A DNA stretch of 64,000 bases from Flavobacteriales bacterium (GTDB lineage: Bacteria > Bacteroidota > Bacteroidia > Flavobacteriales_C > GCA-002722245). The translations under genes were made by a program, and so were the position numbers. The stretch covers positions 48,226 to 112,225 of the forward strand of contig JAHEZL010000004.1 of assembly GCA_023251095.1 (NCBI GenBank). Reading direction: 5' to 3'. The notes under the pieces are model-generated. The model was not told the origin of the DNA, searched no databases, and saw nothing but the letters and a program-made list of their open reading frames with translations. This document shows, piece after piece, positions 18,595 through 52,903 of this stretch. How positions within the stretch are numbered: position 1 is the first letter of the stretch; each line of letters opens with the position of its first letter.

Positions 18595-18600
18595 AGGCTT

Positions 18601-19389: not shown

Positions 19390-20690
19390 TGATAGCTTTT
19401 GAAAATATCATTGATTTTCTTTCTCTGAAAGAAGCCAACGTTCGCTACGTGGTGCTCGGTACTATATTATTAAGTATCGCTTCTTCGGTGATTGGTTGTT
19501 TTGCTTTGTTGCGCAAACGTGCGCTGATTGTAGATTCTATTTCGCATTCTATTTTACCCGGCGTGTGTATGGGCTTTATGATTTCGGGCACCAAAGATCC
19601 TTTGTTTTTATTAGGAGGAGCAATGCTCACAGGATGGCTGTCGATTTACTTTATTGATATCATTACTCGCTATTCAAAAATAAAAGCCGATACTGCAATC
19701 GGTTTAAATCTCTCGGTATTTTTTGCTGTGGGAATTTTGTTGCTCACCATTATTCAGAATTCAGGAAATCCTAATCAATCGGGTTTATCCGATTTTCTTT
19801 TTGGAAAAGCAGCAACGATGGTGGAGTCGGATTTGTATACTTTCGGAGGAATGGCCTTGCTGGTTATTTCAGGAGTGGTGCTGTTTTACAAGCAATTTGT
19901 GTTGGTTTCCTTTGATATGAATTTTGCGAAAACAATAGGATTGAATATTAAATTCTACGAATTCATTTTATCGATATTGACTGTAATGGCTGTAGCTATT
20001 GGTATACAAACAGTAGGAGTGGTGTTGATGGCGGCGATGCTAATTACACCTGCGGCAACAGCGCGTTACTGGACAGATAATTTAAATAAAATGCTGGTCA
20101 TCGCTGCGCTCATCGGTGCCTTGTCGGGAATAGCCGGAGCCTTTGTTTCCTACTCTTATGAAAACATGCCAACCGGACCGTGGATCGTTATTGTGTTTTC
20201 GGTGATTGCCATGTTGTCGATGGTGTTTGCACCTAAAAAAGGAATTGTTTCAAAGTGGTTGCGACAAAAACGCAATTCGCACAAAATGATGGAAGACAAT
20301 ATCCTCAAAGCCTTTTATCGTTTGGGTGAAAAAGAAGGAGATTTTTATAAAAAACGAACAGTGGAAGATTTGATGAATCTGCGCAAATTCGAAAGAAATA
20401 AATTGCTCACAGGTTTGAAATGGCTGAGTGCAGAAAATACTATCGTGCACATCAATAACACTTATGTACTTTCCAAAAAAGGAAAAGCGATAGGAGAGCG
20501 GATAGTGAAAATTCATCGTTTGTGGGAGTTGTATCTCAAAATTTATTTGCGAGTTGCCGATGATCATGTGCACGATGATGCCGAAACGATTGAGCACATT
20601 ATCACACCGGAATTGGAGTTGCTATTGGAGAAACAATTGGATTATCCGACGGAGGATCCGCATCATCAAAAAATTCCTTATTCAAAATAA
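19389..20690 (+). CDS. metal ABC transporter permease (ABC-3 family) fused to a C-terminal DtxR-like domain
   Basis: About 280 aa of ABC-3 permease, then a ~150-aa tail (…KIHRLWELYLKIYL…DDAETIEHIITPELE…YPTEDPHHQKIP) that aligns with the regulator 17025..17696 (RKHRLWEVFLAEKL…IHEIAEQLEHIVSV…FPKFDPHGDPIP). Confidence 0.85.
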   Translation: MIAFENIIDFLSLKEANVRYVVLGTILLSIASSVIGCFALLRKRALIVDSISHSILPGVCMGFMISGTKDPLFLLGGAMLTGWLSIYFIDIITRYSKIKADTAIGLNLSVFFAVGILLLTIIQNSGNPNQSGLSDFLFGKAATMVESDLYTFGGMALLVISGVVLFYKQFVLVSFDMNFAKTIGLNIKFYEFILSILTVMAVAIGIQTVGVVLMAAMLITPAATARYWTDNLNKMLVIAALIGALSGIAGAFVSYSYENMPTGPWIVIVFSVIAMLSMVFAPKKGIVSKWLRQKRNSHKMMEDNILKAFYRLGEKEGDFYKKRTVEDLMNLRKFERNKLLTGLKWLSAENTIVHINNTYVLSKKGKAIGERIVKIHRLWELYLKIYLRVADDHVHDDAETIEHIITPELELLLEKQLDYPTEDPHHQKIPYSK

Positions 20691-25337: not shown

Positions 25338-26630
25338 TCATCTTAACGCACTTTTTACTAAAGAGGTTCCAAGTAACTGATAATAATCTCCGACAACACT
25401 TTTGAAATACACCAACACCTGATAAACGTTTTCGGTTTGGTAGAAATTGCCTTCGTAATAACCCTCGTCGGGCTTGAGTTCTTTGTCGCGAAGCACCACA
25501 TATTTATAATTGTAGTAGCCTTGTTTCAGCAGTAAAGTATTTTCGTAAGCTTTGGCTTCTTCGTTGTATTTCATTTTCGCTTCAGGCAATAGTTCCCAAT
25601 TGGTAAGTTGTCCGAAAACATACACATTGCCATCTTTCAAAGGAGGAATAGTATTGAGTTTAAAATGCACATAGGAATAATCAGCTTCTATTTCCGAGCG
25701 GTTTCCCACTTGCACTTCAATGCTTCTTTCGCCATCGATATCTCCGTAAAATCTGTATTGTTTGAAATTTCTTTTATCGTCGGGTTTTAACAAAGTATGA
25801 TAAATACCATCGGTAAATTCGTAATTTAAAATCCTTTCGGATTGATAGGTGAGTGAGCGGATATCAAAATAGCGCCATTCATTACCGGCATCAAAATTAT
25901 TTTCACCATCGTAATTGTAGTTCAACGATTCATTGCTGATGAAACGTGGTTTTAATCCTGTTATGGCATGGCTCCAGTTGTAGTTTTGAAGGAGCACTAC
26001 TTTAATTTCGGAAAAGGGATCGGTAATGTCTTTTTGTGCGGTAAGTAGATTAAAATCCAATTCATGTTTGTAGTATTGATCGGCCGGAATGCTGGATGGA
26101 CGAAGGGTGGGTTGAATTTCAAATTGTGCGTCTACCATCATGAAGCGCATGGTGAGCACAATGTTTTCGGGATTGTAATCCTGATATACTTTCACGATAT
26201 AATTTCCCGATTTGCTGATTTGGAAATTCTCGTGAGGAAAGGCAATGGAGTAGTGAATGTATTTTTGAAAAGTGTTGAAAGAGTATTCGTAGCCCGAAAT
26301 ATTTTCTTCGGTATAGCCTGATATATAATCGGAAGTAAAAAGATTGGTGGTGGGTTTCCAGTCGGGAGTACAATGAATAATGGTGTAAGTATAATTGTTG
26401 ATGTTCGGACTCAGATCATCGAAACTCAGTAAAAACTGCTGCCCCGAATTTAAAGCGATAACCGGAAAAGAAAGCGGCGCATCCTTAGGATGAAGGAGGG
26501 GAGTGCGGATGTTTTTTTTGTAAGCATGATTGTCGTAACGCAAATACTTATCGCTATAATAACTGCTGTCTTCTGCTGTTTGCGAAAACAAAAACAAAGG
26601 AGAAATCAATAAAAAGAAAAGTATTCGCAT
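25338..26630 (-). CDS. hypothetical secreted protein (DUF-type, beta-rich)
   Basis: Signal peptide MRILFFLLISPLFLFSQ. Operonic with apaG. Confidence 0.5.
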   Translation of the reverse strand: MRILFFLLISPLFLFSQTAEDSSYYSDKYLRYDNHAYKKNIRTPLLHPKDAPLSFPVIALNSGQQFLLSFDDLSPNINNYTYTIIHCTPDWKPTTNLFTSDYISGYTEENISGYEYSFNTFQKYIHYSIAFPHENFQISKSGNYIVKVYQDYNPENIVLTMRFMMVDAQFEIQPTLRPSSIPADQYYKHELDFNLLTAQKDITDPFSEIKVVLLQNYNWSHAITGLKPRFISNESLNYNYDGENNFDAGNEWRYFDIRSLTYQSERILNYEFTDGIYHTLLKPDDKRNFKQYRFYGDIDGERSIEVQVGNRSEIEADYSYVHFKLNTIPPLKDGNVYVFGQLTNWELLPEAKMKYNEEAKAYENTLLLKQGYYNYKYVVLRDKELKPDEGYYEGNFYQTENVYQVLVYFKSVVGDYYQLLGTSLVKSALR

Positions 26631-30970: not shown

Positions 30971-31121
30971 ACCCCACTAAGGTTTATTTTTTTTTGCACG
31001 GTAACTTTTCCTTCCTTAAATTGTTCTACGATAGAGGCATCCCAAGATGCAACTATGAAAAACTACTGATTTGCTGATGTAAAGAAATCTTCTGTTCTGT
31101 GAGAAATTATTGATGCAGATT

Positions 31122-31159
31122 GCGACACTACTATTTTTTTGAATTTTATATTACTACAA
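31122..31159 (+). promoter_or_regulatory. conserved 5' regulatory motif of the giant CTD paralogs (copy 1)
   Basis: GCGACACTACTATTTTTTTGAATTTTATATTACTACAA immediately precedes the ATG. About 85% identical to 36791..36828 upstream of the second paralog. Confidence 0.5.
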
Positions 31160-34100
31160 ATGACAACAAATCTTAGGGGGCTAGGTCTTGTTTTATTGTT
31201 TGCTTTTTCAGCAAACTTAAAGGCGCAAAACGATTGTGCTGCATATCCTAAAACAGGAAAATTCGATACACTTACTTATATTAAATCTTCGGTTCCTACT
31301 GATCCCGGAAAGGGCGCTGGGATCTGGCTCGGACAAGGGACCATCTTAAGAAACGGATCTGAGGTGAGACCTGCCTTTATTCCTTCTAACCATCCTGAAT
31401 GGGCCATTGCCATTGCGGTAGCTTGGAATTACACCAGAAATACTATTAACCGGGTGGAGTATCCGCAAATAGGATACTGGCTGGGAACCGTGGTGCAGGA
31501 AACCGAACTGGCTTGCGTTACAGGAACCACCTGGTCAACGCCCGCTCAAACATCCAACAACATGGCAAATGCAACAACCATTATGGGGCACGACGGTTGT
31601 TTTCAAATAGAAGGTCCGGGTTCGGCTTACGGACAGCTCAATCAGAATTACCCGATGGGACGTTTTCCATCCTCCTTACATCCCACGTTAATCATGGGGC
31701 CTACCAATTTTGAAACATCAGCAATGGTGAAATCTTATTTTGATGTGTATACTACTTCTGTGTACAATGACCATGTGGGTTGGGATGTGTATGAAAGCAT
31801 TGATTGTACTACTGATCCTTATGCTTATATCAAAACATCGGCATCGGGTTATAACGGAGGTATCAATGCTTTTGCCGGAAATGCAGGGAAGTTCAACGGG
31901 AGTCAGGACGGTAATAGTTGTTGGGGAGGAATGGCGGCCACCACTGCCAACTATGCCAACGATGTAGCAAAATGGGTATCGGTGTTGGAAAATACTCCAT
32001 CGTACTGCGAGTATCCAACAGGAAGTTCTTTCGATTCTTATTACAATGGAGACATGACTTGGACGATGGTAAGTAATTACATCAACTCTATTAAAGTAAT
32101 GTATCCGGAAGTAAATTGGACTACAGTAACGGCGGCCGTGCAGGCAAAGTTTAATTCATTAGCCGTAGGCGGAAAAATCAAGTTCCAGCAAATGGGTGAT
32201 GTAATTGATGCAATCGTCATCAATCTTCCCAAAGATTATCCTCAAACAGTAGAAGGGTCTCCTGTAGGAGTGGATGTTTTTGGTTGCTCGGGAAATAAAG
32301 TGCCTTACGGTCATTTTCAAATTTTAAATGGAGCGCAAACGGTTTGCTTAGGAGAATCGGTGACTATGAATATTGTGGTAGATGCAGGAGGTGGAGCAAC
32401 GCCTACTTTTAAGTGGTATAAATCCTCGGCACCGGGAACGATATTAGCAACTACACAATCCTATACTATCACACCAACTGCCGTCGGTAGTGTAGTGTAT
32501 TCGGCAGAGGTTTGTAATTCGGCGGGATGTTATAGGTTAAACAGTAATGAATGTAATGCCTGCATGGATTCTCGTAATTTATGCGGTGTTCAGATTAATG
32601 CCAAACAATGTTCAAATTGCACTTTTACTGCAGCAGCAACTTCTACAAATACGCCTTGTAAAGGAATTCCTGGTGGAAAAATCAATTTAACGCTGACCAA
32701 CACTCCTGCAAACTATACTGTAAATTATACAGGTACCACATCAACAGGAACAGTTGTAGGTTCTTTTGCTTCAACAGGAAATTCAGTGCTAATAGATCAA
32801 TTGCGCGATGGATCATATAATGTTGAGTTGGTAAGCGCCACCGATCCTTTGTGCAAAGCTACCACAACAGTAATTGTTGGTTATACTACAAACGTTAATT
32901 ATTATTTGGACGCCAACGTTACCGGTACCGCCAACTGCGTAGCCGGTGTGAAAGCGGAGGTGAAAGAATTGCCATCGCCATGTAACTGGAAAGTGCGTGT
33001 ACATGTGCCTACTTATTTTATGTGGGAAAATCCTGTAAACTTCGGAGTGAGCACAACAACAGGATTGACCAATGTTGACCGTTATACCCGTACTGCAGCA
33101 AAACCTGAGATTGATCTATGGAACGACGCGCAGATTTACGAATCGGTTTTTTCTTTGAATACCGGTGATGTCATGACTTTCAAGTTCGGCTTAACCAACA
33201 CTCCCGGCGCTACGATGTGGAGAGATTATCAGATTACGGTTTTTGATGAAAACAACAATCAGGTATATACCAAACTTGTAGCGGCAGGATCGGCAAAACT
33301 GGATTTGCCATATACAGCAGGTACTTACGGCGTAACCTGTCCGGCTACCATACCCAATTATACTTTTTCATGGTCGCCTTCCTTAACCGCAGTGAACACC
33401 ACCACTACTACTTCTACCGGAACAGTACCTGTGGATAAAACCACCGATAAAACGTATACTGTAACGGCCATTAATTTGGCGAGTCCGCAATGTACTTTAA
33501 CTGATACAGTAATAGTTCGCAAAAACCCTGCGTGTACCACAACAGCTTGTGTGAAGCCATCGGCGGTGATTTCAGGAAGTGGATCAATTTGTCCGGGCGA
33601 CAGCATCAAATTAACGGTTACTTTAACCGGAAGTGCCAACTGGAAACTGCGCATTAAAAACGGAGCCAGCATTACCAAGGTTCAAAACATCACGGCGAGT
33701 CCTTATACTTTTTATGCAAAAACAGCGGGGACTTATTCCATAGATACCGTGTGGGATGCCAATTGCGATACTTTAGGAAAAGGAGCGGGAGCAGTGGTGA
33801 CAGTGAAAACTGCGCCAACGGCAACCATCACCGGAGCGGCAACCATTTGTCAGGGCGACAGTACCTTGATGACCGTTGCATTAACAGGAACAGCCAACTG
33901 GAAATTAAAAATCAATAAAGCAGGAGTTGTTTCAACAGTAAGCAATATCGCTTCCATTCCTTATACCTTCTGGGCAAAAACAGGAGGGACTTATACTGTA
34001 GATTCTGTTTGGGATGCCAACTGTTCGGCGAAAGGAATAGGCAGTCCGGTAGTAGTTGCGAATCCGCAGCCAACCATTGCAACAGCAGGAAGCACCACTA

Positions 34101-36691
34101 TTTGTCAGGGCGATACTGCAAAAATAACGCTCACCTTAACCGGAACTGCACCTTTTACCATTAAAGCAAAAGTGGGAGCAATCACCGGAACTTATGTGAC
34201 CAACACCACCAGTTTTATAGTTCCTTTAACCACCGCCGGAACAGATACTATAAATGTTACTGATGCCACTGGCTGCAAGGCCGTCACAAAAACAATTACA
34301 ATTGTGGTTAATCCTAAAGTAACAGTTGCTTTTGCAAAAGACACCATGAATATTTGTGCGGGAACTCCTGTGAATTTAACGCCTGTTGTAACAGGTGGTA
34401 CAGCGCCTGTTACTTACGTGTGGACGGGCTTAGGCTCGGGCGCCGGAACCAGCTACAATGCAAATGCGCAAGGCTATTATTATGTGGCCGTTACCGACAA
34501 CAAAGGTTGTATTGGTAAGGATACTGTTTATGTAAAAGTGAGTTCGAGTTTAACGGTCAACCTCGTAAACAAATCTATTTGTGTTGGTGATTCATTGATC
34601 CTTGATGCCGGTTATGATGTGGTGAATTATCATTTGCAATGGAATACTCCTGATACCACTCAGACTATAAAAGTAAAAACCGTAGGGATTTATGGCGTAG
34701 TGGTGCAAACCCGAACGGGCGGATGTACGGGAAGCGATAGTATGAATCTTTCGATGTTTGCAATGCCTGTTGTTAGCTTGGGAGTCGACGATACTATATG
34801 TATTGGCGCTAAAGCAACCTTGAATGCGGGCAACGGATTTTCTTCTTATTTATGGTCCACAACCGATGTTACGCCTACCATTTCAAAAGGAAACGGAACT
34901 TACAATGTAACGGTAACAGATGCCAACGGATGTAAAGCCAAAGACACTATTCAGGTAACAGAGATAGCAAAACCAAGTCCTGATGTTATTCAGGATATCG
35001 CCACTTGTGCCGGAACCAATCTTACTTTTAAAGAAGGATCTTACAATAATTTACACGGACCATATACTTACAAATGGCTGTATGACAACAGTACTGCCGA
35101 CAGTTTGAAATTCACCAATTTGAGCAACGCCCACAATCTGATGACTTCTTTTGGAGGCTGGGTAAAAGTAGATGTGAGTGATAAATTTGGTTGTAAAGGA
35201 AGAGACAGTGCGCGTGTTACCATTAATTCGGCATTGCCTGTTCAAATCAGCGGAGTGCCTGATACCATGATGTGTGCAGGAGGAGCGGCCATTACTTTGA
35301 GTTCGCAATATACTGCTGCGGGAGGTTATACTTTCAATTGGACGGGCACCACTCCGGCAACAACAGAAAGCATTTCGGTAACGAAAGCAGGATTGATTAC
35401 GCTTGTTGTTTCCAGCGGTGGATGTACCGGAACCGATGCCATTACTATTGTGGTGAATCCTTTGCCGGATATGAATTTAATTACTACCACCAAATCCATT
35501 TGCAGTGGTGATGCTGCTTTACTGGGCTACAACTACGGAGCCAATCACAGTTATTTGTGGGAAGATAATGCGCCGTCAACACTAAGTACAAACACCATTT
35601 ATTCTACAACAACAGGAGGTACTTATACAGTAACGGTTACCAATACTGTAACAGGTTGTAAAGCCGATACCAATATTGTGGTTACTGCGCACGCAAAACC
35701 AAATGTGGGCATAGGAAATGATATTGATACCTGTAACAATGTAACGCTGACTTTGAGCGAAACCACGGGGCAAACAGGTGTGACTTACAGCTGGACAAAA
35801 TTAAGTACGGCGCCAATAGTGCTGGGAACAACAGCGACACTGCCGGTTTCAAACAGTGATCAGTATAAATTAACAGTGACCGATGCTTTTGGTTGTTTTA
35901 AATCCGATAGTTTGAATGCACTTTTCAGAATTATGCCCGTGGTGAATTTACTAGGAGCGGATACGTCGACAATTAAAATAATATGTGAAGGAGAAATCTT
36001 GCCACTTAATGCAATAAATGCTGCTTCAGGCATGACTTATCTGTGGAATAATTCATCGGTAAATCCGGTGTTGAATGTTAATCAAAGCGGAACCTATTCG
36101 GTGACGGTGAGCAATGGAAATTGCGTTGCCAAAGACACACAAATAGTTCAGCAAATAGTTCTTCCTGATGAGGTTTTAAATGATACTATTTTTCCAATCA
36201 AATCCATTTATTGTTTTGCTGAGGAAGGTCCGGTGGTACTATCGGCCCTCACCCATGATCCTGCAAGCAGCGCTTACAATTATCTATGGAACAACGGAGC
36301 AACTACACCTCAGATTAATTTAACTGCAGGAGGATTGTACAGCGTGAAAATAGGTTTGGATAAATGTAATGTGATAGATGAAATTGCTGTGACGGATTAT
36401 TGTCCGACTACCTTTTTCGTTCCTAATTCATTCACTCCGAATGGCGACAATACCAATGATGTATTTTATGCTGTAGGATATTATGTGAACGATTATCAGT
36501 TGTTGATTTTTGATCGCTGGGGGAATCTTATTTTCAAAAGCAACGACATGGCAACGGGCTGGAACGGAATGGTGAATGGCCGACCGGTGCAGCAAGATGT
36601 ATATGTTTGGAAAGTGAATTACAGCATAAATATGGATACCGGAAAAACCAAAGCGAAAGAAAAAATCGGACACGTAACAGTGATTTATTAA
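31160..36691 (+). CDS. giant cell-surface protein with Ig-like repeats and gliding-motility-associated (T9SS type B) C-terminal domain
   Basis: Signal peptide MTTNLRGLGLVLLFAFSANLKAQ, repeated ~85-aa Ig-like modules (…ICxGDS…LTGTANWKL…YTF…VWDANC…) and the C-terminus CPTTFFVPNSFTPNGDNTNDVF…LLIFDRWGNLIFKS…GWNG…. Confidence 0.85.
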   Translation: MTTNLRGLGLVLLFAFSANLKAQNDCAAYPKTGKFDTLTYIKSSVPTDPGKGAGIWLGQGTILRNGSEVRPAFIPSNHPEWAIAIAVAWNYTRNTINRVEYPQIGYWLGTVVQETELACVTGTTWSTPAQTSNNMANATTIMGHDGCFQIEGPGSAYGQLNQNYPMGRFPSSLHPTLIMGPTNFETSAMVKSYFDVYTTSVYNDHVGWDVYESIDCTTDPYAYIKTSASGYNGGINAFAGNAGKFNGSQDGNSCWGGMAATTANYANDVAKWVSVLENTPSYCEYPTGSSFDSYYNGDMTWTMVSNYINSIKVMYPEVNWTTVTAAVQAKFNSLAVGGKIKFQQMGDVIDAIVINLPKDYPQTVEGSPVGVDVFGCSGNKVPYGHFQILNGAQTVCLGESVTMNIVVDAGGGATPTFKWYKSSAPGTILATTQSYTITPTAVGSVVYSAEVCNSAGCYRLNSNECNACMDSRNLCGVQINAKQCSNCTFTAAATSTNTPCKGIPGGKINLTLTNTPANYTVNYTGTTSTGTVVGSFASTGNSVLIDQLRDGSYNVELVSATDPLCKATTTVIVGYTTNVNYYLDANVTGTANCVAGVKAEVKELPSPCNWKVRVHVPTYFMWENPVNFGVSTTTGLTNVDRYTRTAAKPEIDLWNDAQIYESVFSLNTGDVMTFKFGLTNTPGATMWRDYQITVFDENNNQVYTKLVAAGSAKLDLPYTAGTYGVTCPATIPNYTFSWSPSLTAVNTTTTTSTGTVPVDKTTDKTYTVTAINLASPQCTLTDTVIVRKNPACTTTACVKPSAVISGSGSICPGDSIKLTVTLTGSANWKLRIKNGASITKVQNITASPYTFYAKTAGTYSIDTVWDANCDTLGKGAGAVVTVKTAPTATITGAATICQGDSTLMTVALTGTANWKLKINKAGVVSTVSNIASIPYTFWAKTGGTYTVDSVWDANCSAKGIGSPVVVANPQPTIATAGSTTICQGDTAKITLTLTGTAPFTIKAKVGAITGTYVTNTTSFIVPLTTAGTDTINVTDATGCKAVTKTITIVVNPKVTVAFAKDTMNICAGTPVNLTPVVTGGTAPVTYVWTGLGSGAGTSYNANAQGYYYVAVTDNKGCIGKDTVYVKVSSSLTVNLVNKSICVGDSLILDAGYDVVNYHLQWNTPDTTQTIKVKTVGIYGVVVQTRTGGCTGSDSMNLSMFAMPVVSLGVDDTICIGAKATLNAGNGFSSYLWSTTDVTPTISKGNGTYNVTVTDANGCKAKDTIQVTEIAKPSPDVIQDIATCAGTNLTFKEGSYNNLHGPYTYKWLYDNSTADSLKFTNLSNAHNLMTSFGGWVKVDVSDKFGCKGRDSARVTINSALPVQISGVPDTMMCAGGAAITLSSQYTAAGGYTFNWTGTTPATTESISVTKAGLITLVVSSGGCTGTDAITIVVNPLPDMNLITTTKSICSGDAALLGYNYGANHSYLWEDNAPSTLSTNTIYSTTTGGTYTVTVTNTVTGCKADTNIVVTAHAKPNVGIGNDIDTCNNVTLTLSETTGQTGVTYSWTKLSTAPIVLGTTATLPVSNSDQYKLTVTDAFGCFKSDSLNALFRIMPVVNLLGADTSTIKIICEGEILPLNAINAASGMTYLWNNSSVNPVLNVNQSGTYSVTVSNGNCVAKDTQIVQQIVLPDEVLNDTIFPIKSIYCFAEEGPVVLSALTHDPASSAYNYLWNNGATTPQINLTAGGLYSVKIGLDKCNVIDEIAVTDYCPTTFFVPNSFTPNGDNTNDVFYAVGYYVNDYQLLIFDRWGNLIFKSNDMATGWNGMVNGRPVQQDVYVWKVNYSINMDTGKTKAKEKIGHVTVIY

Positions 36692-36790
36692 CCCCCGCTG
36701 TAACATTTCCTCTCTTACTTTGTTTTACGTAGACTACTTGCTGTTTTAACAGATCTTCTTTAGATTTAAGGAAACTCTTAACAGCCGATG

Positions 36791-36828
36791 CGAACACTAC
36801 TATTTTTGAATTTTATTTTATTACTACA
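36791..36828 (+). promoter_or_regulatory. conserved 5' regulatory motif of the giant CTD paralogs (copy 2)
   Basis: CGAACACTACTATTTTTGAATTTTATTTTATTACTACA contains TAttTTTG (the Bacteroidetes -7 consensus TAnnTTTG) and sits directly before the ATG at 36829. Confidence 0.5.
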
Positions 36829-39800
36829 ATGGGGGCAAAAAATTTCTTTACAAAGAAGTTAAGAGCATTATGTGTTTTCTCTTTTCTTTCTTTTTCTTCT
36901 CTTCAATTATTTTCAGCAGATATTACTGTTTCTTTTTGTCCTGTTTCTAAGATTCAGGCAGGAAAGCAGTGGAATGCAACTATTCAGATTCAAAACAACA
37001 CTGGAGTTATTCTTGATTTAAACAACCCGGCTAATTTATTTACTTTCAATTGGCCAAGCTTGGTTTCTTTGCCATACCCTTATCAAAACGGGACGCAGGC
37101 GGGTACTACCTGGAAATTTAATATAGCGGGTGTTGTTACCTGGGATTCTAAAATGCCTGTTGGTGCTACGTGGTCACAAGCTTTTACAGGTGCTTTGTTT
37201 TCCGGAGTTCTTCAGTTTCCTACATCGGGTACCTTTAAACAAGGCGCTACCACTTATACCGTGTCGGTTGCAAACTGTAATCAAACTCAAAACTATGAGT
37301 TGTACGATGCTACTTTCGATTTCAAACGGGAATGCTTTATTTATTCTCCAACAAAATTATGTTTAGGTCAGGCTGCAACTGAGATTTGGCAAGGTGAAGG
37401 AGTGTTTGATGCGATGGTGCCTACCAATAAACCAAGCTGGGCTATTGCCGATATGGTGGCGCATCGTTTGTTTACCAATTTAGTTGGACAAGACATTGTA
37501 TCTCCTAACTTTTGGATGGCGACGGCGATGAACGAATCAAGAATGACTTGTGATCCAACGATTACTCCGAATTTAACAGGCGGACATACTTACATTAATG
37601 CGAATGCCAGTTCAGGGGTTCCCGGCGCAGGAATTTCCAATACAACCGACAACTGTTTTCAGGTTTTAAATATCGGGTATACCCAAATTGAAAACAATCA
37701 ACCCGATTTATTCGCACAAACAAATGCCTACGGAACGGCCAGTTATTCCACAGTAGTGGATAACGGAAACTGGGAAACAGGTGCTTTGGCAGTTGCTTAT
37801 TATCACTATCAGGATTTGAGATATTGGGATCAGATTTACTGTTTCAATGTTCCTAAAACATGGAAAGATGCCAAAGATCCATATGCGATAGAAAAGATTT
37901 TTTATCATGCTTTTCATGATGGCCCGAATGCAGGTATTTCTTTATTAAACGACATTAAAGCCAATTATGCAGCGGCTACAAATGCTGTCAATATGAATAC
38001 TGTTATTACTACAGGCGGTACGTGGAGTGCGCCAAATGGCGGTAGTAGTATGAAGGTGGGGAACTTTACAAGTTTATTGGATGGGGGTAGCGGACTTCTT
38101 TATCCCGGACAAACAAAAACAAATTACACTACTCAGTATTTGGGTTGTTACAATGCAGCTATCAAATGGACTGATGTGGTTTACTACCTGGGAAAAATTA
38201 AAATTCTTTATCCTAAGTTGCAAACGGCTGCAATACAAACAGCAATTAAAGCTGTGTTTGATGGTATCAACGGCGGAGCGAATGTGAATTTCGAAGACCT
38301 CGGTCCGGTGATTGATGAAATCGTTATTCAAATGGGTGGGCACGATCCTTCAAAATACATTGCCACACAATTCAGCGCATCTCATACTTGTCCTACTAAT
38401 GCATTGGGTATTTCTTTAAGAACCAACGATACTATTTGTCCGGGCACAACAGGGACTTTACAAGTATGGCTGTCGGGAGATGCTAATTTTAAAGTAACCA
38501 TTAAATATCCTGATGCTTCACTGCATACTTTTTCGAATATTAATTATTCTCCTTACAATGTTCCTATTACTCAGCCGGGAGCTTATGAAGTGACTTATTT
38601 TGAAGACAATTCCCGAATTGGTGATTTGAACTGCTTGTTCAGCAAACTCACTGTTCAAAGTAAAAACGGAAATGTGGTGACCTGGGATAAAACCAATGTC
38701 ACCGGAGTAGGTGCTGCGAAATGCGCAACGGGTGATTTGATTTTAAAAAATACCGGTCCGAATGCAGTAGCCATTACTTATACAAAAGACGGGGGAGCTC
38801 CAATCACTGTGAATTTCACTGCCGGACAAACAACAAAAACCATTGCTTCTCCGGGTTTAGCCGGACAGTATATCATCAAAACAATGACGCCCAATACATG
38901 TGGAACATCTATTCTCGATACCATTACCATTTGTAATACTTCCTGTACCAAACCAACTGCTGCTATCAGCGGTGGCGCTCCAATTTGTCAGGGCGACAGT
39001 ACTCAGCTGAGTGTAGCGCTGACAGGAACTTCTCCATGGAAAATTAAAATCAATGATGGTACAATAGTGAAAACTTATAAATCGGGCATCACTACTATTC
39101 CTTATACTTTTTATGTGAAAACTGCAGGAGTGTATAAAATAGATTCAGTGTGGGATGCCACCTGCAGCAATGTTGGAACCGTTGCTACGTCAGCCGTTAC
39201 AGTAAATCCTTTGTCAACAATTGCTATTGCGGGAGATACCAGTATTTGTCCGGGAGGAACTGCTACGCTCACCTTGACTTTAACAGGAACCGCACCCTAT
39301 GCTATCAAGGTCACTACAGGTGTTACTATTGTTAATCTAGTAGCGCCGGGTAATACTTATGTCGTTCCTTTAACAACGATTGGAACTTATACTTTAGATG
39401 TTACCGATGCCAACGGATGTAAAAAATCGAAGACAGTAAAAATCATCAATGAAACTCCGCCAACGGTGACGATTGGCGATACCATTAAATTTTGTCCTGG
39501 TGGAAGCACACCTGTTTCAGTGCCTGCAGGATTTACATCTTATTTATGGTCGACTAACGGAATTACAAATTCCATCACTGTGAATGCAGCAACAACTTCT
39601 CCGGTGTGGATTGAAGTGACCGATGCCAATGGTTGTAAAGCCAGAGACAGCGCGGTAACCAAACAAGGACAATTGTCGGTGAACATCGGTCCGGCAGATA
39701 CTACTTTGTGTTTCGGATCAAGCATCACTTTAGATGGTGGAGCAGGATTTTCTACTTACGCGTGGACGGGCGCAAAAACAGGATCGGCACAAACTTTAGT

Positions 39801-41514
39801 GGCTACCACTGCGGGAACTTATAATTTAAGTGTTACCGATGCTTCAAGTTGTACTGCAACAGATGCGATCAATGTACATATCAATGCGGCCATCACGCTG
39901 AGTCTCGGGACTTCTGATACTTTGTTTATTTGTCCGGGAGGATCCGTTACTATAAATCCTGTTGTTCCTGCGGGAACTTTAACTTACTTATGGTCAAACA
40001 TAGCGAGTGGATCAGCCACTACTTACAACGCTACTTTAGAAGGATGGCACACCGTAAAAATTACCGATGCTTTGGGTTGCAATGCCAAAGACAGTGTGTA
40101 TGTGAAAGAAAACAGCAAGTTGGTTTTTTCACTCGCAGATAAAACAATTTGTGTTGGCGACAGCATCGTTTTAAATCCGGGATATTCCGGTGCAGGTTAT
40201 ACTTTTGCATGGAATACGGGTGATGTTACACCAACCAAAACTGTGAAAACAGCGGGGATTTATGGACTGGTAGTCACCTACAATGGATCTTGTTCGGGAA
40301 GTGATTCAATGAATTTAATTATGTATCCAGTGGCTGATGTTAATTTGGGTGCTGATACCATTTTTGTTTGTGCAGGTGCTACAACATCTATTGATGCAGG
40401 TGGTGCATTTACAAATTATGTTTGGTCGAGTTCGGAACAAACAAAAGTAATCAACAATAAAGCACCGAATAAATATGTGGTGAATGTTACCGATGCAAAC
40501 GGATGTAAAGACAAGGATTCGGTAATAGTATTTGCGCGACCTTTGCCAATTGTAAATATCGCTAATGATATAGATACTTGTGCGGGAGTGACTGTTACTT
40601 TATCGAATAGCGTTAATCAAACAGGCATCACTTATAAATGGACTAAAATAAGCACGGGCGCGAATTCACAGGGCGCTACATCTACTTTGGTCATTACACA
40701 AAATGATACTTATATTTTAACTGCTACTGATGCTTCTTCCTGCAGCGACAGCGATACAGCATTGGCCAATTTCAGAATAGTTCCTGTTGTGGATTTATGG
40801 CCTACTGATACTGCTGTGATGTGTTCGGGTGATGTGTTGCCGCTGGATGCTGCTAACGTGGGTGATACTTATTTATGGAATACTACTCAAACTTCACAAA
40901 CGATTTCAGCCACCAGCGAAGGGTTATATTTTGTTACCGTAAGCAATGGAATGTGTAAAGATCAGGATTCCCTTTACGTTAAAGAAATTACACTTCCGCG
41001 CGGAGTATTGAATGATACACTGCTTCCTTTGTTGCCTTATTATTGTTTCGCCGAAGAAAGTGCAACACTGTCGGCAGCAAGCATGGATAACGTTACTTAC
41101 AATTATTTGTGGAGCACGGGAGCTACTACACAATCCATAGCGATAACTGCGGAAGGGACTTATAGCGTCACGGTAAGTGCCGACAATTGTTCGGTGAAGG
41201 ACGATGTTTCGGTGATTGATTTTTGTCCGACTACCTTCTTTGTTCCTAATGCCTTCACGCCAAATGGAAATGGAAGCAATGAAACTTTTCAGGTGGTGGG
41301 ACAATACATAGAAAATTTTGAGCTATTGATTTTTAACCGATGGGGAGAAATCATTTATAAGAGTACTGATTTTCACCAGGGATGGGATGCTACTTGTCAC
41401 GGCAGAAAAGTACAACAGGATGTGTATGTATGGAAAGTGCACTATGCCGTAAATTTACCGAATGGTAAAACTCAGGAAAGAGAAAGAATGGGGCATGTGA
41501 CGGTGATTTATTAA
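36829..41514 (+). CDS. giant cell-surface protein, paralog of 31160..36691, with T9SS type-B C-terminal domain
   Basis: The N-terminal ~400 aa and C-terminal ~100 aa align with the upstream paralog (PTNKPSWAIADMVAHR // PSNHPEWAIAIAVAWN; CPTTFFVPNAFTPNGNGSNETF…LLIFNRWGEIIYKS…). Same Ig-like module repeats. Confidence 0.85.
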   Translation: MGAKNFFTKKLRALCVFSFLSFSSLQLFSADITVSFCPVSKIQAGKQWNATIQIQNNTGVILDLNNPANLFTFNWPSLVSLPYPYQNGTQAGTTWKFNIAGVVTWDSKMPVGATWSQAFTGALFSGVLQFPTSGTFKQGATTYTVSVANCNQTQNYELYDATFDFKRECFIYSPTKLCLGQAATEIWQGEGVFDAMVPTNKPSWAIADMVAHRLFTNLVGQDIVSPNFWMATAMNESRMTCDPTITPNLTGGHTYINANASSGVPGAGISNTTDNCFQVLNIGYTQIENNQPDLFAQTNAYGTASYSTVVDNGNWETGALAVAYYHYQDLRYWDQIYCFNVPKTWKDAKDPYAIEKIFYHAFHDGPNAGISLLNDIKANYAAATNAVNMNTVITTGGTWSAPNGGSSMKVGNFTSLLDGGSGLLYPGQTKTNYTTQYLGCYNAAIKWTDVVYYLGKIKILYPKLQTAAIQTAIKAVFDGINGGANVNFEDLGPVIDEIVIQMGGHDPSKYIATQFSASHTCPTNALGISLRTNDTICPGTTGTLQVWLSGDANFKVTIKYPDASLHTFSNINYSPYNVPITQPGAYEVTYFEDNSRIGDLNCLFSKLTVQSKNGNVVTWDKTNVTGVGAAKCATGDLILKNTGPNAVAITYTKDGGAPITVNFTAGQTTKTIASPGLAGQYIIKTMTPNTCGTSILDTITICNTSCTKPTAAISGGAPICQGDSTQLSVALTGTSPWKIKINDGTIVKTYKSGITTIPYTFYVKTAGVYKIDSVWDATCSNVGTVATSAVTVNPLSTIAIAGDTSICPGGTATLTLTLTGTAPYAIKVTTGVTIVNLVAPGNTYVVPLTTIGTYTLDVTDANGCKKSKTVKIINETPPTVTIGDTIKFCPGGSTPVSVPAGFTSYLWSTNGITNSITVNAATTSPVWIEVTDANGCKARDSAVTKQGQLSVNIGPADTTLCFGSSITLDGGAGFSTYAWTGAKTGSAQTLVATTAGTYNLSVTDASSCTATDAINVHINAAITLSLGTSDTLFICPGGSVTINPVVPAGTLTYLWSNIASGSATTYNATLEGWHTVKITDALGCNAKDSVYVKENSKLVFSLADKTICVGDSIVLNPGYSGAGYTFAWNTGDVTPTKTVKTAGIYGLVVTYNGSCSGSDSMNLIMYPVADVNLGADTIFVCAGATTSIDAGGAFTNYVWSSSEQTKVINNKAPNKYVVNVTDANGCKDKDSVIVFARPLPIVNIANDIDTCAGVTVTLSNSVNQTGITYKWTKISTGANSQGATSTLVITQNDTYILTATDASSCSDSDTALANFRIVPVVDLWPTDTAVMCSGDVLPLDAANVGDTYLWNTTQTSQTISATSEGLYFVTVSNGMCKDQDSLYVKEITLPRGVLNDTLLPLLPYYCFAEESATLSAASMDNVTYNYLWSTGATTQSIAITAEGTYSVTVSADNCSVKDDVSVIDFCPTTFFVPNAFTPNGNGSNETFQVVGQYIENFELLIFNRWGEIIYKSTDFHQGWDATCHGRKVQQDVYVWKVHYAVNLPNGKTQERERMGHVTVIY

Positions 41515-41521
41515 GCTCCTC

Positions 41522-41678
41522 CTCGTCATTGCCCTCTCCGTCATTGCGAAATTTTTGTACTCAAAAATGAAGCAAACTCATTACATAATAAGTTCACTTT
41601 TTTTAGCTACTTCCCATTATGAGGTTGCTTCATTTTTGAGTACAAAAATTTCGCAATGACGGAGAGGGCAATGACGGG
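41522..41678. repeat. long-palindrome intergenic repeat, copy 2 (arms ~60 bp)
   Basis: CTCGTCATTGCCCTCTCCGTCATTGCGAAATTTTTGTACTCAAAAATGAAGCAAACTCAT … ATGAGGTTGCTTCATTTTTGAGTACAAAAATTTCGCAATGACGGAGAGGGCAATGACGGG. Starts 8 nt after the stop of the giant gene. Confidence 0.8.
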
Positions 41679-46048: not shown

Positions 46049-47260
46049 ATGAAGAATATAATTTTACGAAGTTTAGTATTTGTGTCAATGTTGTTGAATA
46101 GTGTTAATCTGAATGCGCAAGCCGCTTCGGGTCCGCTCGTTTATAGCGGAAAATCGAATATTATTATCAACGGTAAAGCATTCACCTCAGGTACAAGTGG
46201 GGTGGCTATCACCTTAACCAATTGCTCAAAGGTGGTGATTTCCAATTGTGAATTTATTCTTACTAAAGACATTATAGGAATTCAATTGAACAATTGTAGT
46301 AACGTAGAAATTACGGGTTGTTATTTTGAGAATTTTCGCTCGGGGGTATATGCTGTAAATTGTACAGGCGGCATTAATATTCATTGTAATTCATATAAAA
46401 ATATAGCGGGAATAAAACCACGCGGACAAATGGTGCAGTTCAATACCTGCAGCGGTGCGGGAAATAAAGTGAATTACAATACGCTGGATCATACTTTCGG
46501 ATCGGGCACTCCCGAAGATTTGATTAATATGTATGCGTCGTACGGAACTACTGCCGATCCTATTCAGATCATAGGAAACCAGTTGCGTGGTGGCGGACCG
46601 AGTACTTCGGGCGGAGGAATTATGGTGGGCGACAACGGCGGACATGATGTGCGCATAGAAGACAATATTCTGGTGGATGTTGGTCAGTATGGCATCGGTG
46701 TGCCTGCCGGATACAACATTACTGTGATCAATAATAAGGTGTATGGCGCAAAACAAACCTGGACCAACGTGGGGCTTTATGTTGGTTTACAAGGAGAGGT
46801 GGATGGTGGCTATGCCTGTACCGGAAGCAGTATTCAGGTAAAAGACAATCAGATTAAATTCACCAATAAAAGCAATGTGGTGAACGGCTGGTACAATTGC
46901 ACTTGTTGTTCGGGAGTGGTGCAAAGCGGAAATAATTTTAAAGCGAGTATTACTTCCTCTGTTTTGCCTGCCAATTTAAGTTTGAATACCACACAATGTG
47001 GAAGTGTTGCTACTGCTGTTGCAGAAAAAAAATCATCAGATGCTTTTGATGTGTACCCCAACCCGGCAGAGCATCTATTAGTAGTGACTAATCTTACGGG
47101 AAGTGAAAATGTTCAGATTTTCAATTCTTTGGGTCAGGAGGTGTTTACTGCGAAAAACAATCTTGAAAATTCGCTGATACAAATTGATGTCGATGGATTT
47201 CCTTCAGGAATTTATTTTATTCAAATCAATAATCAGGTGAAAAAATTTATAAAGCAATAA
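46049..47260 (+). CDS. right-handed parallel beta-helix repeat protein with T9SS type-A C-terminal sorting domain
   Basis: Repeated NCS/NCT…ITGC…F beta-helix rungs (VISNCEF, VEITGCYFENF, INIHCNSY). C-terminal VYPNPAEHLLVV…GIYFIQINNQ T9SS CTD. Confidence 0.75.
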   Translation: MKNIILRSLVFVSMLLNSVNLNAQAASGPLVYSGKSNIIINGKAFTSGTSGVAITLTNCSKVVISNCEFILTKDIIGIQLNNCSNVEITGCYFENFRSGVYAVNCTGGINIHCNSYKNIAGIKPRGQMVQFNTCSGAGNKVNYNTLDHTFGSGTPEDLINMYASYGTTADPIQIIGNQLRGGGPSTSGGGIMVGDNGGHDVRIEDNILVDVGQYGIGVPAGYNITVINNKVYGAKQTWTNVGLYVGLQGEVDGGYACTGSSIQVKDNQIKFTNKSNVVNGWYNCTCCSGVVQSGNNFKASITSSVLPANLSLNTTQCGSVATAVAEKKSSDAFDVYPNPAEHLLVVTNLTGSENVQIFNSLGQEVFTAKNNLENSLIQIDVDGFPSGIYFIQINNQVKKFIKQ

Positions 47261-47407
47261 GAGCAACGATAGATCCTGAGGGATAATCCACGGAAGATGA
47301 CTATTCTTAATTACCCCTCATATAGTTCATTATAAGTGTCCTAATGATTCTTCTAATTCCAAAGGGATCTATCGCTTTTCCACTTAAAAATCAGTTCTTT
47401 TTTTCCG

Positions 47408-47437
47408 GTACGGATCACAGGGTCATTAGGTTGGGTA
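47408..47437 (-). promoter_or_regulatory. ECF-sigma-like promoter motif CTACCCAACC-N15-CCGTA (copy 3, minus strand, no downstream ORF)
   Basis: Reverse complement of GGTACGG…GGTTGGGTAG. It points into the 47261..47407 spacer, where no ORF longer than 7 aa exists. Confidence 0.35.
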
Positions 47438-47579
47438 GCATGAAATAATAACGATTTTTCTGTTTTTATATCGATCTAAGTCGTATTTTTTCCTTCTTCA
47501 ATATCTTATGAAGGAAAAGGGGCTTTCATAGGCATAAGAAAATTAACTTGTAAATTCTTGTCTTTTAATCAACGTCTAC

Positions 47580-48143
47580 GTGATTACAAACGATTTAATA
47601 GATAAATGTGTTCGTCAGGATATCCGTGCTCAGCTTGAAATGCATGAGTGTTGTTTCCGTATGCTGATGCCTGTTTGCTATAAGTTTGTACGCAATGAAG
47701 AAATGGCGCGTGAGTTATACAATCAAGGATTTTTAAAGATTTTGGATGCCTTGCAATATTTCGATCAAAATAAAGATTTTACGCAATGGGCCAAAAAGAT
47801 CATGATGAATAAGCTGATCGACGATTATAGAAGTAAGAAGTCCTTGCAGAAACTGATCGATGACAATTTGCAGCCCGATTTTGCTTCAAATACCATTCGT
47901 TTAAAAGATGAAAACACATATCTGAACCAGGCTGAAGAGGAAAGAGTAAACTACTTGCTGGAAAAATTGCCTGAAACCACCCGTCGTGTTTTTAGGCTCT
48001 TTGCCCTAGAGGGTTATTCTCACCAGGAGATCAGCGATTTGATGAAGATGTCAACCGGAACTTCCAAATGGCATGTGTCGAATGCGCGAAATTTATTGAA
48101 GCGTTTTGTTACAAAAAAATTAAATGTAGTGAGTCATGAATAG
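47580..48143 (+). CDS. RNA polymerase ECF-type sigma-70 factor
   Basis: Region 2 (…FLKILDALQYFDQNKDFTQWAKKIMMNKLIDDYR) and region 4 HTH (FRLFALEGYSHQEISDLMKMSTGTSKWHVSNARNLLK). GTG start. Confidence 0.85.
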   Translation: MITNDLIDKCVRQDIRAQLEMHECCFRMLMPVCYKFVRNEEMARELYNQGFLKILDALQYFDQNKDFTQWAKKIMMNKLIDDYRSKKSLQKLIDDNLQPDFASNTIRLKDENTYLNQAEEERVNYLLEKLPETTRRVFRLFALEGYSHQEISDLMKMSTGTSKWHVSNARNLLKRFVTKKLNVVSHE

Positions 48144-49422
48144 TGGGAATAACGACATACCGTCTTTTGAATACAAACCTGAGTTCAGACAGGAGATGGA
48201 AAAGATTTTGGTTAAAAGGAAATCGAAAAAGCGTTTTCTGTTTTTTTTAACCTGGACTTTAGGCGGGCTTGTCCTTGCTGCGGGATCCTTCTATTTCATG
48301 CAGGAAGAGCAACAAATACCGGAAGAAAAAATACAGAAAGAGCAAAATGTTCAGGAGATCTTTACATCGGAATCTGTTGCTGATGAAAGTGCTAAAAAGC
48401 AAATATTGACTACCGTAAATTCCAATGGAAGTACTACACCTGCGGAACAGAAAATTAAAAAGACCTTGGCTCAGAAAAAAACTGTAAGCACTTCACCTTC
48501 AATAAATACCTTTCAGCAGCAAACAAAACAAGAAGCAACAACACCGCAGGAGATACCGATAAATGCTATTGTTTCTACCGAAGTTGTTCAAAACGATTCT
48601 TCTTTATTGGAACAGGATAGTTTGCTTTCAACTACCGAAAACAAAATTTCTTTTGAAGATTCGTTAATGAGTTTTGCGCATAACAACAGCGATACTAATT
48701 TAACTGATACACTGGCTAAAGTTCCCGAGGATTCTGTAAAAAATTCATCAGATCATCAATGGCTATTGTACGTTGGTGCAGGAGCGAACAACAGCATTGG
48801 AGAAGGAGAATACAGCAATGGAATCGCTCCTTCTTTCAAATTAGGGGTGCATTATCTCAAAGAGTTCACTAAGGAACATGCTGTGGGAATAGGCTTACAA
48901 AGCAAGTTGTATAGGGGTCTATACAACTGGGGAGGCTACGATACGGTGAAGACAAGTATTACCAATCCTAACAACTCCGGCTACGATAAAATGGAAGCAC
49001 GTGTGGTAACGCACAATCAAAATAAATATGCAATGGCTTTGTCGCTGCCTTTGTATTATCGCTATTCCACTCCTAAATTCAGTTTCAGCGTTGGCGCGAG
49101 CATTGATTATCTGGCGGCAAATTTGTACGAACAAACTGCAGATTCTTCCAAGTATGGCATCAATACTTTTGTTTTTTACACAGAAGTTTTAACGGAGAAA
49201 ACAAGTGCTGCAAAAGTAAAGAAACAGGATTTCAGAGGAATCAATCAACTCAATTTCGGTCCGTTTATAGAAGTGGATTATCACTTGTCTCCCAAAATTT
49301 CTATGGGACTTACGGGGCAGATGCTGGTTCAGGATATTACCAATAATGCTGTTGTAAACGTCAATAAAAACAGTCCGATTTATTCTTTAAATGTAAGTTT
49401 GAAATATCATTTTTGTAAATGA
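48136..49422 (+). CDS. membrane protein co-transcribed with ECF sigma (putative anti-sigma factor with beta-barrel-like C-terminal domain)
   Basis: Overlaps the sigma gene by 8 nt. Short cytoplasmic N-terminus, one TM (FLFFLTWTLGGLVLAAGSFYF), and a large extracytoplasmic domain ending in an aromatic-rich beta pattern. No zinc anti-sigma motif is recognised, so the call is low confidence. Confidence 0.45.
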   Translation: MNSGNNDIPSFEYKPEFRQEMEKILVKRKSKKRFLFFLTWTLGGLVLAAGSFYFMQEEQQIPEEKIQKEQNVQEIFTSESVADESAKKQILTTVNSNGSTTPAEQKIKKTLAQKKTVSTSPSINTFQQQTKQEATTPQEIPINAIVSTEVVQNDSSLLEQDSLLSTTENKISFEDSLMSFAHNNSDTNLTDTLAKVPEDSVKNSSDHQWLLYVGAGANNSIGEGEYSNGIAPSFKLGVHYLKEFTKEHAVGIGLQSKLYRGLYNWGGYDTVKTSITNPNNSGYDKMEARVVTHNQNKYAMALSLPLYYRYSTPKFSFSVGASIDYLAANLYEQTADSSKYGINTFVFYTEVLTEKTSAAKVKKQDFRGINQLNFGPFIEVDYHLSPKISMGLTGQMLVQDITNNAVVNVNKNSPIYSLNVSLKYHFCK

Positions 49423-52811: not shown

Positions 52812-52826
52812 AATAAAAAATTACTT

Positions 52827-52857
52827 CTACCCAACCTTTCCGCTTTCACAAACGGTA
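52827..52857 (+). promoter_or_regulatory. ECF-sigma-like promoter motif CTACCCAACC-N16-CGGTA (copy 2)
   Basis: CTACCCAACCTTTCCGCTTTCACAAACGGTA lies 47 nt upstream of the ATG of 52904. Confidence 0.45.
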
Positions 52858-52903
52858 TTCTTGTTTAAGGGGCTATAAATGGGTATAATTTAAAATTTCA
52901 ACT

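Follow-up and report, generated by a model that had tools for sequence, protein, structure and literature searches.

Tandem paralogs for T9SS type-B cargo with a Tc-ChiD-related head and conserved upstream DNA in a Flavobacteriales genome

We asked what two giant neighbouring genes of a flavobacterium encode, and why the DNA just before their start codons is more alike than the genes themselves. The genes lie in a stretch of 64,000 nucleotides (nt) from a Flavobacteriales bacterium (GenBank assembly GCA_023251095.1, contig JAHEZL010000004.1, positions 48,226 to 112,225 of the forward strand), which was analysed as a whole and is called the window here. Both are on the + strand, gene 1 at 31160-36691 (1843 amino acids, aa) and gene 2 at 36829-41514 (1561 aa). 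An earlier note on this DNA had proposed two genes at these positions, and both proved to be real open reading frames (ORFs) with a type-B C-terminal domain (CTD) of the type IX secretion system (T9SS). The account that we favour, with moderate confidence, is that they are two anciently diverged paralogs whose products are exported by Sec and the T9SS, carry a head like that of the chitinase Tc-ChiD on an immunoglobulin (Ig)-like stalk ending in the type-B CTD, and have kept functional 5′ cis-regulatory DNA.

Both products combine a signal peptide, a ChiD-like head, an Ig-like stalk and a type-B CTD. The start of gene 1 was placed at ATG 31160 and an alternative at TTG 31139 was rejected, because orthologs share the former position. 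Inspection of the translations gave plausible Sec-type signal peptides, ending in MTTNLRGLGLVLLFAFSANLKA before QN in gene 1 and in ...LSFSSLQLFSA before DI in gene 2. In gene 1, profile and fold comparison placed a ChiD-type, lysozyme-superfamily glycosidase-like domain at aa ~23-365 (31226..32254). Gene 2 begins with a predicted β-sandwich of the fold of carbohydrate-binding module (CBM) family 2 (aa ~31-150, 36919..37278), and its ChiD-like domain, recognised by homology to the gene 1 head, follows at aa ~165-510 (37321..38358). The stalk consists of a dozen or more Ig-like modules and spans 1000-1400 aa in both proteins; Pfam matched Ig_7 and POM152-like Ig domains in the pair, including three POM152-like modules at aa 795-1045 of gene 1 (33542..34294), the first two of which end in WDANC. 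The CTDs lie at aa 1754-1843 of gene 1 (36419..36688) and aa 1472-1561 of gene 2 (41242..41511). They scored 55.9 and 52.0 bits, respectively, against TIGR04131 (Bac_Flav_CTERM, NCBIfam; cutoff 35) and 51.3 and 54.9 bits against CHU_C (Pfam; cutoff 27), which bears out the earlier note's view of the genes as T9SS type-B cargo. Judged by these domains, the pair are ordinary members of that class. The proteins would cross the inner membrane via Sec, the T9SS would recognise them by the type-B CTD, and their final place would be at or on the cell surface.

The identity of the head was less obvious, as the first 400-540 aa had no match in Pfam, NCBIfam or direct PDB sequence searches. A word-indexed search for relatives gave only 7, and an exhaustive profile search gave ~200 representative clusters at 50% identity, 105 of them with E<1e-30. 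In this family the domain lies at the N-terminus, after an extension of ~130-150 aa as in gene 2, or internally. A profile of 51 family sequences (A4, with gene 1 as its first row) matched PDB chain 5xsv_A at E=3.3e-29 (105 bits), across ~306 profile positions (60-365) and chain residues 172-479, with the motifs KE[ST], DGxFQ[IV]E and YNRG common to both. Single-sequence and 8-sequence profile searches of PDB sequences returned nothing, so that only the 51-sequence profile reached 5xsv. When an AlphaFold2 model of the gene 1 head was compared with known structures by Foldseek, 5xsv was again reached, as the sole significant match. Since the family profile and, separately, the structural search led to the same entry, we conclude that the head is a bacterial member of the Tc-ChiD family, with a lysozyme-superfamily fold related to that of glycoside hydrolase family 23 (GH23). 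The entry is Tc-ChiD of Thermococcus chitonophagus, termed 'a structurally novel chitinase' in the title of Horiuchi et al. (2016, AEM; as cited in PMC12713403). One family member, P0007, was left out of the profiles: its first ~230 aa are a ChiD-like head and are followed by a cyclopropane-fatty-acid-synthase-type methyltransferase, probably through a chimeric contig or a gene-calling artefact.

The likeness extends to the residues that would be catalytic. The family motifs QETE/KES, DGCFQIE and AYNRG occur in the same order as ES/GLMQ/AYNxG in GH23. A Glu that is near-invariant in the family (50 of 51 sequences), Glu114 of gene 1 (codon 31499-31501) and Glu236 of gene 2 (codon 37534-37536), corresponds in the alignment to the Glu within the 5xsv segment 'AKEN', and Asp145/274, Gln149/278 and Asp219/350 are likewise conserved in both paralogs. 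With the GH23/SLT lytic transglycosylases, goose-type lysozyme and the Ralstonia GH23 chitinase (4c5f, 4hjy, 1qsa, 4g9s, 3w6b) the head has in common a lysozyme-like core and the Glu-Ser/Thr, GxxQ and YNxG motifs at equal positions. Unlike them it is about twice as large, and its additional subdomains are common only to Tc-ChiD; the Pfam SLT domain model gave no match. Some points weigh against taking the heads as active enzymes. The model of gene 1 was of moderate quality (pLDDT, the predicted local confidence score, 64) and the gene 2 head gave no confident model (pLDDT <50). The catalytic residues are putative, being assigned solely by alignment and superfamily analogy, and three semi-conserved positions are altered in gene 2 and its clade relative to the consensus (G146N, E151L and N232H, numbered as in gene 1). 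Gene 1 keeps the full consensus set.

We then considered how old the pair is. The C-terminal ~1080 aa of the two proteins, comprising Ig-like modules and CTD, are 37% identical (E=1e-152). Their N-terminal domains are homologous at 25% identity (E=1e-22), with an offset of ~130 aa because gene 2 has an additional N-terminal module. The earlier note's claim of paralogy in the N-terminal ~400 aa, the Ig modules and the CTD therefore holds as to homology throughout, with the qualification that the heads are only 25% identical and out of register by that offset. At the DNA level, blastn aligned the coding regions in patches only, of 65-85% identity, the longest being the CTD (65.6% over 421 nt). 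Each type also has its own orthologs elsewhere: those of gene 1 are found in L001 (92% identity in the head) and in L002, L003, L004 and L013 (82-87%), and for gene 2 they are the second L001 gene (75.6%) and, in L014, a collinear gene that stands alone (49.6%), with more gene-2-type genes in L016, P0037 and P0155. The split is therefore older than the divergence of these Bacteroidota lineages. By these comparisons the duplication is ancient, with coding DNA at most ~65% identical apart from locally higher patches. The recent duplication proposed earlier is contradicted by this low DNA identity, by the protein identity of 25-37% and by the separate gene-2-type orthologs. Scanning of metagenomes added four loci, none above 85% identity, and GC content and skew were unremarkable, with no sign of recent horizontal transfer.

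Module number proved stable over the orthologs at hand. The five gene 1 orthologs (L001, L002, L003, L004, L013) are collinear, with gaps of only 6-8 aa. Gene 1 does have two tandem modules ending in WDANC and gene 2 one ending in WDATC, as the earlier note had counted; gene 2 in addition holds a diverged module of the WDANC class at aa ~535-600, which that count had missed. The two gene 1 modules are 69% identical at the DNA level, and TRF found no tandem DNA repeats. The idea of ongoing module gain and loss finds no support in these three results. Sequence change is instead uneven along the protein: the first 400 aa of the gene 1 orthologs are 80-94% identical and the stalk 40-55%, which marks the head as the constrained, functional part.

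Against this background, the likeness upstream of the genes called for an explanation. The last ~43 nt before the ATGs are 86% identical (31121-31159 versus 36789-36829, E=3.7e-6) and are the best-conserved DNA between the two genes by blastn. A duplicated upstream segment of ~45 bp had been noted before; the similarity is there, and it is not confined to that segment, as it spans the whole intergenic region in three blocks, A, B and C. Block A, a candidate promoter of the type used by sigma factors with extracytoplasmic function (ECF), follows the consensus GTAACwTTTCCTyyCTTAmwTTGTTyTACG at 31001-31030 and 36700-36729. In gene 1 (31001..31034) it has GTAAC at 31001-31005, a 16-nt spacer and TGTTC at 31022-31026, with a predicted transcription start site (TSS) at ~31034, and includes TAAATTGT (31017-31024). 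In gene 2 (36700..36733) it begins 9 nt past the gene 1 stop codon, with GTAAC at 36700-36704, a 16-nt spacer, TGTTT at 36721-36725 and a predicted TSS at ~36733, and includes TACTTTGT (36716-36723). Block B (ACTACT..TTGCTG.T.TAA..ATCTTCT, 31062..31097 in gene 1 and 36733..36761 in gene 2) is weaker and is common to gene 1, gene 2 and L001. Block C reads GATTGCGACACTACTATTTTTTTGAATTTTATATTACTACAA in gene 1 (31118..31159; predicted TSS ~31146). In gene 2 (36787..36828) it contains an exact Bacteroidetes -7 box, TATTTTTG (36801-36808), with a predicted TSS at ~36813.

Orthologous gene 1 intergenic DNA is only 67% identical overall between the window and L001, showing that neutral sites have diverged, and the blocks are kept in both paralogs of both genomes. 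As the coding DNA shows an ancient split, the high upstream identity is not a leftover of the duplication; it is the outcome of selection on cis-regulatory DNA, to which exchange between the neighbours may have added. The homologous three-block region would thus have been retained as functional cis-regulatory DNA in both genes. The presence of conserved promoter-like elements in both 5′ regions agrees with the earlier suggestion of equivalent promoters and makes co-regulation plausible. A structured leader RNA was ruled out by RNAalifold, which found no conserved structure or covariation in four leaders (genes 1 and 2 of the window and of L001). There was no Rfam family and no tRNA in the whole window, and a scan with sigma-70 and terminator consensus sequences gave no difference from shuffled sequence.

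Block A was found throughout the family. The pattern GTAAC-N14/15-(A/T)TTGT, equivalent to GTAAC-N16/17-TGT, precedes 17 ChiD-like genes of both paralog types, down to 49% head identity. It occurs 19 times in 323 kb (window and loci), compared with 4.3 +/- 2.7 times in shuffled sequence; 12 of these 19 matches lie upstream of ChiD-like genes, and later loci contributed 5 more. All 17 instances have an exact GTAAC; 10 have a spacer of 16 nt and the other 7 one of 17 nt, and the distance to the ATG varies from 49 to 159 nt (60 nt in the gene 1 orthologs of L002, L003 and L013; 49 nt in the gene-2-type gene of L016). This combination of fixed inner geometry and variable distance to the ATG is promoter-like. 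A further copy, GTAAC-N17-TGTTT, was observed at 16563-16588 (- strand), 88 nt upstream of ATG 16500 (- strand) of a gene for a TlpA-like thioredoxin lipoprotein (DUF4369/DUF5106/AhpC-TSA); that gene could belong to the same regulon, perhaps serving the disulfides of Cys-rich cargo, or the copy could be a chance match.

Block A resembles promoters that have been mapped in Flavobacterium psychrophilum. The ECF-sigma 'SM6' promoters of that species read GTAAC-N16-CGTAT, ACAAC-N16-CGTTT and ACAAT-N16-CGTTT (Guerin et al. 2021, PMC9723704, Table S2) and drive gldN, porU and the gene for a PorK/N-associated protein. Common to both are the -35 GTAAC, the 16-nt spacer, a T-rich -10 region xGTTT and the association with the T9SS; unlike the SM6 promoters, block A has TGT for CGT and precedes cargo genes rather than machinery genes. 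By sequence, GTAAC-N16-TGTT is a close variant of this known flavobacterial ECF promoter class, and by analogy block A is most likely an ECF-type promoter of related specificity, which would serve the family as a whole as such promoters serve T9SS genes in flavobacteria. In the literature searched, GTAAC turned up in connection with ECF only within primers.

Block C has a narrower distribution. Its invariant core, TTTTTGAATTTTA, occurs in the window at the two genes only and also at both L001 paralogs; apart from a single match in L010, the exact core was absent upstream of other genes in the window or loci. The block is absent from the gene 1 orthologs in L002, L003 and L013 and from the gene-2-type gene of L016. 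TAnnTTTG is exact in three of the four copies (gene 2 and both L001 copies). We propose, from these sequence features, that block C is a proximal element, particular to this lineage, that carries a sigma-A -7 box. With two promoters each, the genes would recall the arrangement in F. psychrophilum, where gldN uses SM6 and SM1 and remFG-sprCDBF uses SM4 and SM5, dual promoters having been reported for the sprB operon of that species (PMC9723704). Block C is restricted to one lineage, yet it stands in both of two ancient paralogs, which suggests that it arose once and was then copied from one tandem neighbour to the other, probably by gene conversion; otherwise all other lineages of both gene types would have to have lost it. 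In keeping with such copying, upstream regions are 74-77% identical within a genome (between paralogs), as against 63-79% between genomes (orthologs).

Several observations weaken the reading of blocks A and C as ECF and sigma-A promoters. At the -10 triplet, block A reads TGT without exception among the 17 instances, where the mapped SM6 promoters have CGT. Of 21 loci, only 2 have an ECF sigma gene close to a ChiD-like gene, and linkage as a general rule was rejected on that count. The box TAttTTTG, which the earlier note had seen upstream of both genes, is exact in gene 2, and in gene 1 the sigma-A-like -7 box carries two extra T (TA+7T+G, 31132-31141). Block C also lacks a conserved -33 TTG 17-23 nt upstream of the -7 box.

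These points leave some room for another explanation of the upstream region, a tentative one to which we give a minor share of credence: in place of an ECF promoter, block A would be an operator bound by a transcription factor of its own, or a TAnnTTGY promoter like SM5, and block C, in place of a promoter, would be an A/U-rich 5′ untranslated or translation-initiation element of a long leader that starts from block A. Indeed, TAAATTGT and TACTTTGT within block A fit TAnnTTGY, which as the SM5 box drives remFG-sprCDBF in F. psychrophilum (PMC9723704), and L016 has the exact TAAGTTTG at the same position. The TGT triplet, the inconsistent linkage to an ECF sigma gene, and the way block C abuts the ATG without a -33 element would all fit. 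Against it, the GTAAC pentamer and the 16-nt spacing are identical to those of mapped ECF promoters, the SM5 examples examined have no GTAAC, the leader has no conserved RNA structure, and three of the four block C copies hold an exact TAnnTTTG. We therefore retain the assignment of block A as an ECF-type promoter as most likely.

What the heads act on was approached through the company that the domain keeps. Of the family members in which the ChiD-like domain is internal, 7 were tested and all 7 had a GH18 domain. Such GH18 plus ChiD-like proteins usually have Fn3 linkers and a T9SS type-A CTD, and one has ChitinaseA_N; P0137 combines the ChiD-like domain with PKD and CBM5/12. We observed the dual-domain arrangement of GH18 and an internal ChiD-like domain in P0051, P0057, P0101, P0060, P0058, P0053 and P0104, in which no Pfam model covers the second domain. 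In gene 2, the N-terminal extension was confidently predicted as a β-sandwich (pLDDT 70-89). Its best structural match was CBM2a of Cellulomonas fimi Cex (TM 0.73-0.75, E=4e-7), and it also matched N-terminal domains of GH20 chitobiases and GH18 chitinases. In Tc-ChiD (PDB 5xsv/5xsw/5xsx), too, carbohydrate-binding modules reportedly lie N-terminal of the catalytic domain, the counterpart in gene 2 being the predicted CBM2-like fold. Differences are that the window pair is bacterial, not archaeal, with ~15% identity to Tc-ChiD, that gene 1 has no CBM, and that the window domain, whose activity is predicted from sequence, tips an Ig-like stalk of 1000-1400 aa ending in a T9SS type-B CTD.

By analogy with these relatives, the substrate is most likely a polymer of β-1,4-linked N-acetylglucosamine (GlcNAc) and the enzyme a chitinase. 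We infer that the pair are stalk-mounted, T9SS-exported glycosidases of the ChiD type; the stalk would hold the hydrolase of β-1,4-GlcNAc polymer, most likely a chitinase, away from the cell. T9SS-secreted GH18 chitinases are known from Bacteroidota, F. johnsoniae ChiA being an example. The pair resembles them as multidomain, T9SS-exported proteins of the chitin-degrading type, and distant members of its own family are GH18 plus ChiD-like fusions with T9SS CTDs. Unlike them it has no GH18 domain, its sole enzyme-like domain is the ChiD-type head, and its CTD is of type B.

The head could instead cleave peptidoglycan, as a muramidase or in the manner of a lytic transglycosylase, against other bacteria or for the scavenging of cell walls. 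The ES/GxxQ/YNxG-like motifs do resemble those of GH23. Fusion of family members to GH18, CBM5/12 and ChitinaseA_N, the CBM2-like module in gene 2 and the missing match to the Pfam SLT model all speak for chitin, and we regard a peptidoglycan substrate as unlikely. Also to be weighed is whether the heads are enzymes at all, since catalytically dead, carbohydrate-binding tips would make the proteins adhesins. A long Ig stalk with a type-B CTD is indeed reminiscent of known surface adhesins, and the gene 2 clade carries its three substitutions at semi-conserved positions. However, neither paralog has lost the near-invariant Glu, Asp and Gln, and gene 1 matches the consensus at all conserved positions. 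Purifying selection is strongest on the head, and short relatives of 773-776 aa, made up of a gene-2-type head and a type-A CTD, have the look of normal secreted enzymes. Loss of catalysis is, on this evidence, improbable, and a chitinase remains our preferred reading.

The comparison with adhesins also concerned SprB, whose likeness the earlier note had invoked. Like SprB and other type-B-CTD cargo of F. johnsoniae (Kulkarni et al. 2019, as cited in PMC9723704), the pair are large and have a TIGR04131 CTD, a Sec signal peptide and repeated Ig-like modules. Unlike SprB, they have an enzyme-like head and are much smaller. Neither gene matched the Pfam SprB repeat, and sprC, sprD and sprF neighbours are absent at the locus. 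No PorP/SprF gene lies beside the pair, nor was there such a Pfam match in the scanned ORFs of the window; a cognate gene of this kind often, though not always, adjoins that of type-B cargo, and the negative weighs against the account that we favour. Given the missing SprB repeat, the missing PorP/SprF neighbour and a most conserved part related to Tc-ChiD, the label of SprB-like adhesin was dropped. The proposal to which it belonged, a recent tandem duplication that included the promoter and gave SprB-like adhesins diversifying by gain and loss of Ig modules, has in its favour the tandem, same-strand genes with common Ig modules and type-B CTD, the 86% identity of the 43 nt before the ATGs, the WDANC module count of 2 versus 1 and the fast-evolving stalk, and is nonetheless very improbable given coding DNA at <=65% and heads at 25% identity, gene-2-type genes found separately in distant genomes, five collinear orthologs without module-sized indels, internal modules 69% identical in DNA with no tandem DNA repeats, no SprB repeats, no adjoining sprF-like gene, and an enzyme-like head as the most conserved part.

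One may also go further than the account that we favour. The heads might be loaded on the gliding track as SprB is, making a mobile, stalk-mounted chitinase, and a dedicated ECF sigma factor might read GTAAC-N16-TGTT, so that expression would be tied to the state of the T9SS or envelope, the promoter having been copied between the paralogs; we consider this bolder combination doubtful, with little probability as a whole.

The closest neighbours of the pair are housekeeping genes, with a methyltransferase gene and hemB upstream and genes for TraB/GumN, PrmC and ArgS downstream. A gene for a T9SS plug protein (PF17116) lies at 25338-26630 on the - strand, ~4.5 kb upstream of gene 1, and adjoins a gene for a 794-aa BNR/PKD protein; there are no core gld/spr genes within the 64-kb window. 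From 10 nt past the gene 2 stop, a hairpin (41524..41676) with 58-nt arms, 98% complementary, and a 37-nt loop was observed, the 35-nt core of which recurs as an inverted pair at 11237-11271 and 11318-11352. It is a repeated palindromic intergenic element akin to a miniature inverted-repeat transposable element (MITE) or a repetitive extragenic palindromic (REP) sequence, and possibly a terminator. About 6 kb downstream of gene 2, an ECF sigma gene (47580-48143) is followed by a 428-aa ORF without Pfam match and by a gene for a 1130-aa protein with Ig_7 and type-B CTD (49419-52811). The group (47580-52811) looks like a sigma/anti-sigma/cargo operon with the 428-aa ORF as a possible anti-sigma factor; GTAAC-N16-TGT does not occur upstream of it. 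At 46049-63911 there is a cluster of type-A-CTD cargo, comprising beta-helix, pectate-lyase-like, heparinase II/III-like, PATR-repeat, GH10 and GH16 proteins, and the organism looks like a T9SS-dependent degrader of polysaccharides, a setting in line with the proposed chitinases. An ORF close to the left end (816-1538) encodes an NTF2-fold immunity domain (Imm-NTF2-2) and hints at a polymorphic-toxin or immunity locus there.

Some of the related loci also deserve mention. In L001, the closest genome (a Flavobacteriales metagenome-assembled genome, MAG), the gene 2 ortholog (15757-20420) changes frame at ~16000-16044, by an assembly error or as a pseudogene. The L001 pair has MbnP and a di-haem cytochrome c peroxidase upstream, a neighbourhood other than that in the window, so that the pair appears to have moved as a unit. 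L016 (2467-7846) has a 776-aa gene-2-type enzyme with a type-A CTD followed in tandem by a long gene-2-type gene, which carries block A as GTAACTATTCCTTCTTAAGTTTGTTCTAC 49 nt upstream of its ATG. In two Cytophagaceae MAGs (L005, 3637-12907, and L006), a ChiD-like gene (978 aa, type-A CTD) immediately follows a PorU-like Peptidase_C25 gene (1677 aa) and a 375-aa ORF without Pfam match, so that here the enzyme gene adjoins T9SS machinery.

Taken together, the window pair represent a bacterial branch, outside the Pfam and NCBIfam models tested, of a family that has been characterised in one archaeon only. Their architecture, a ChiD-type head at the tip of an Ig stalk of >1000 aa that ends in a type-B CTD, is new; to our knowledge, the type-B class has so far been known mainly from adhesins. 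The finding connects a Bacteroidota family of ~200 clusters, which has no Pfam or NCBIfam model and whose members are either without a source name or called 'hypothetical', with its single characterised representative, the archaeal chitinase Tc-ChiD. For hundreds of giant 'T9SS type-B sorting domain-containing proteins' it provides an enzymatic function that can be tested, and it exposes dual-domain chitinases of the GH18 plus ChiD-like type. The likeness of GTAAC-N16-TGTT to the ECF promoters that serve T9SS machinery genes means that one can now test directly whether cargo and machinery are regulated together. More generally, regulatory DNA may exceed coding sequence in likeness between ancient paralogs, and such likeness is then no proof of recent duplication.

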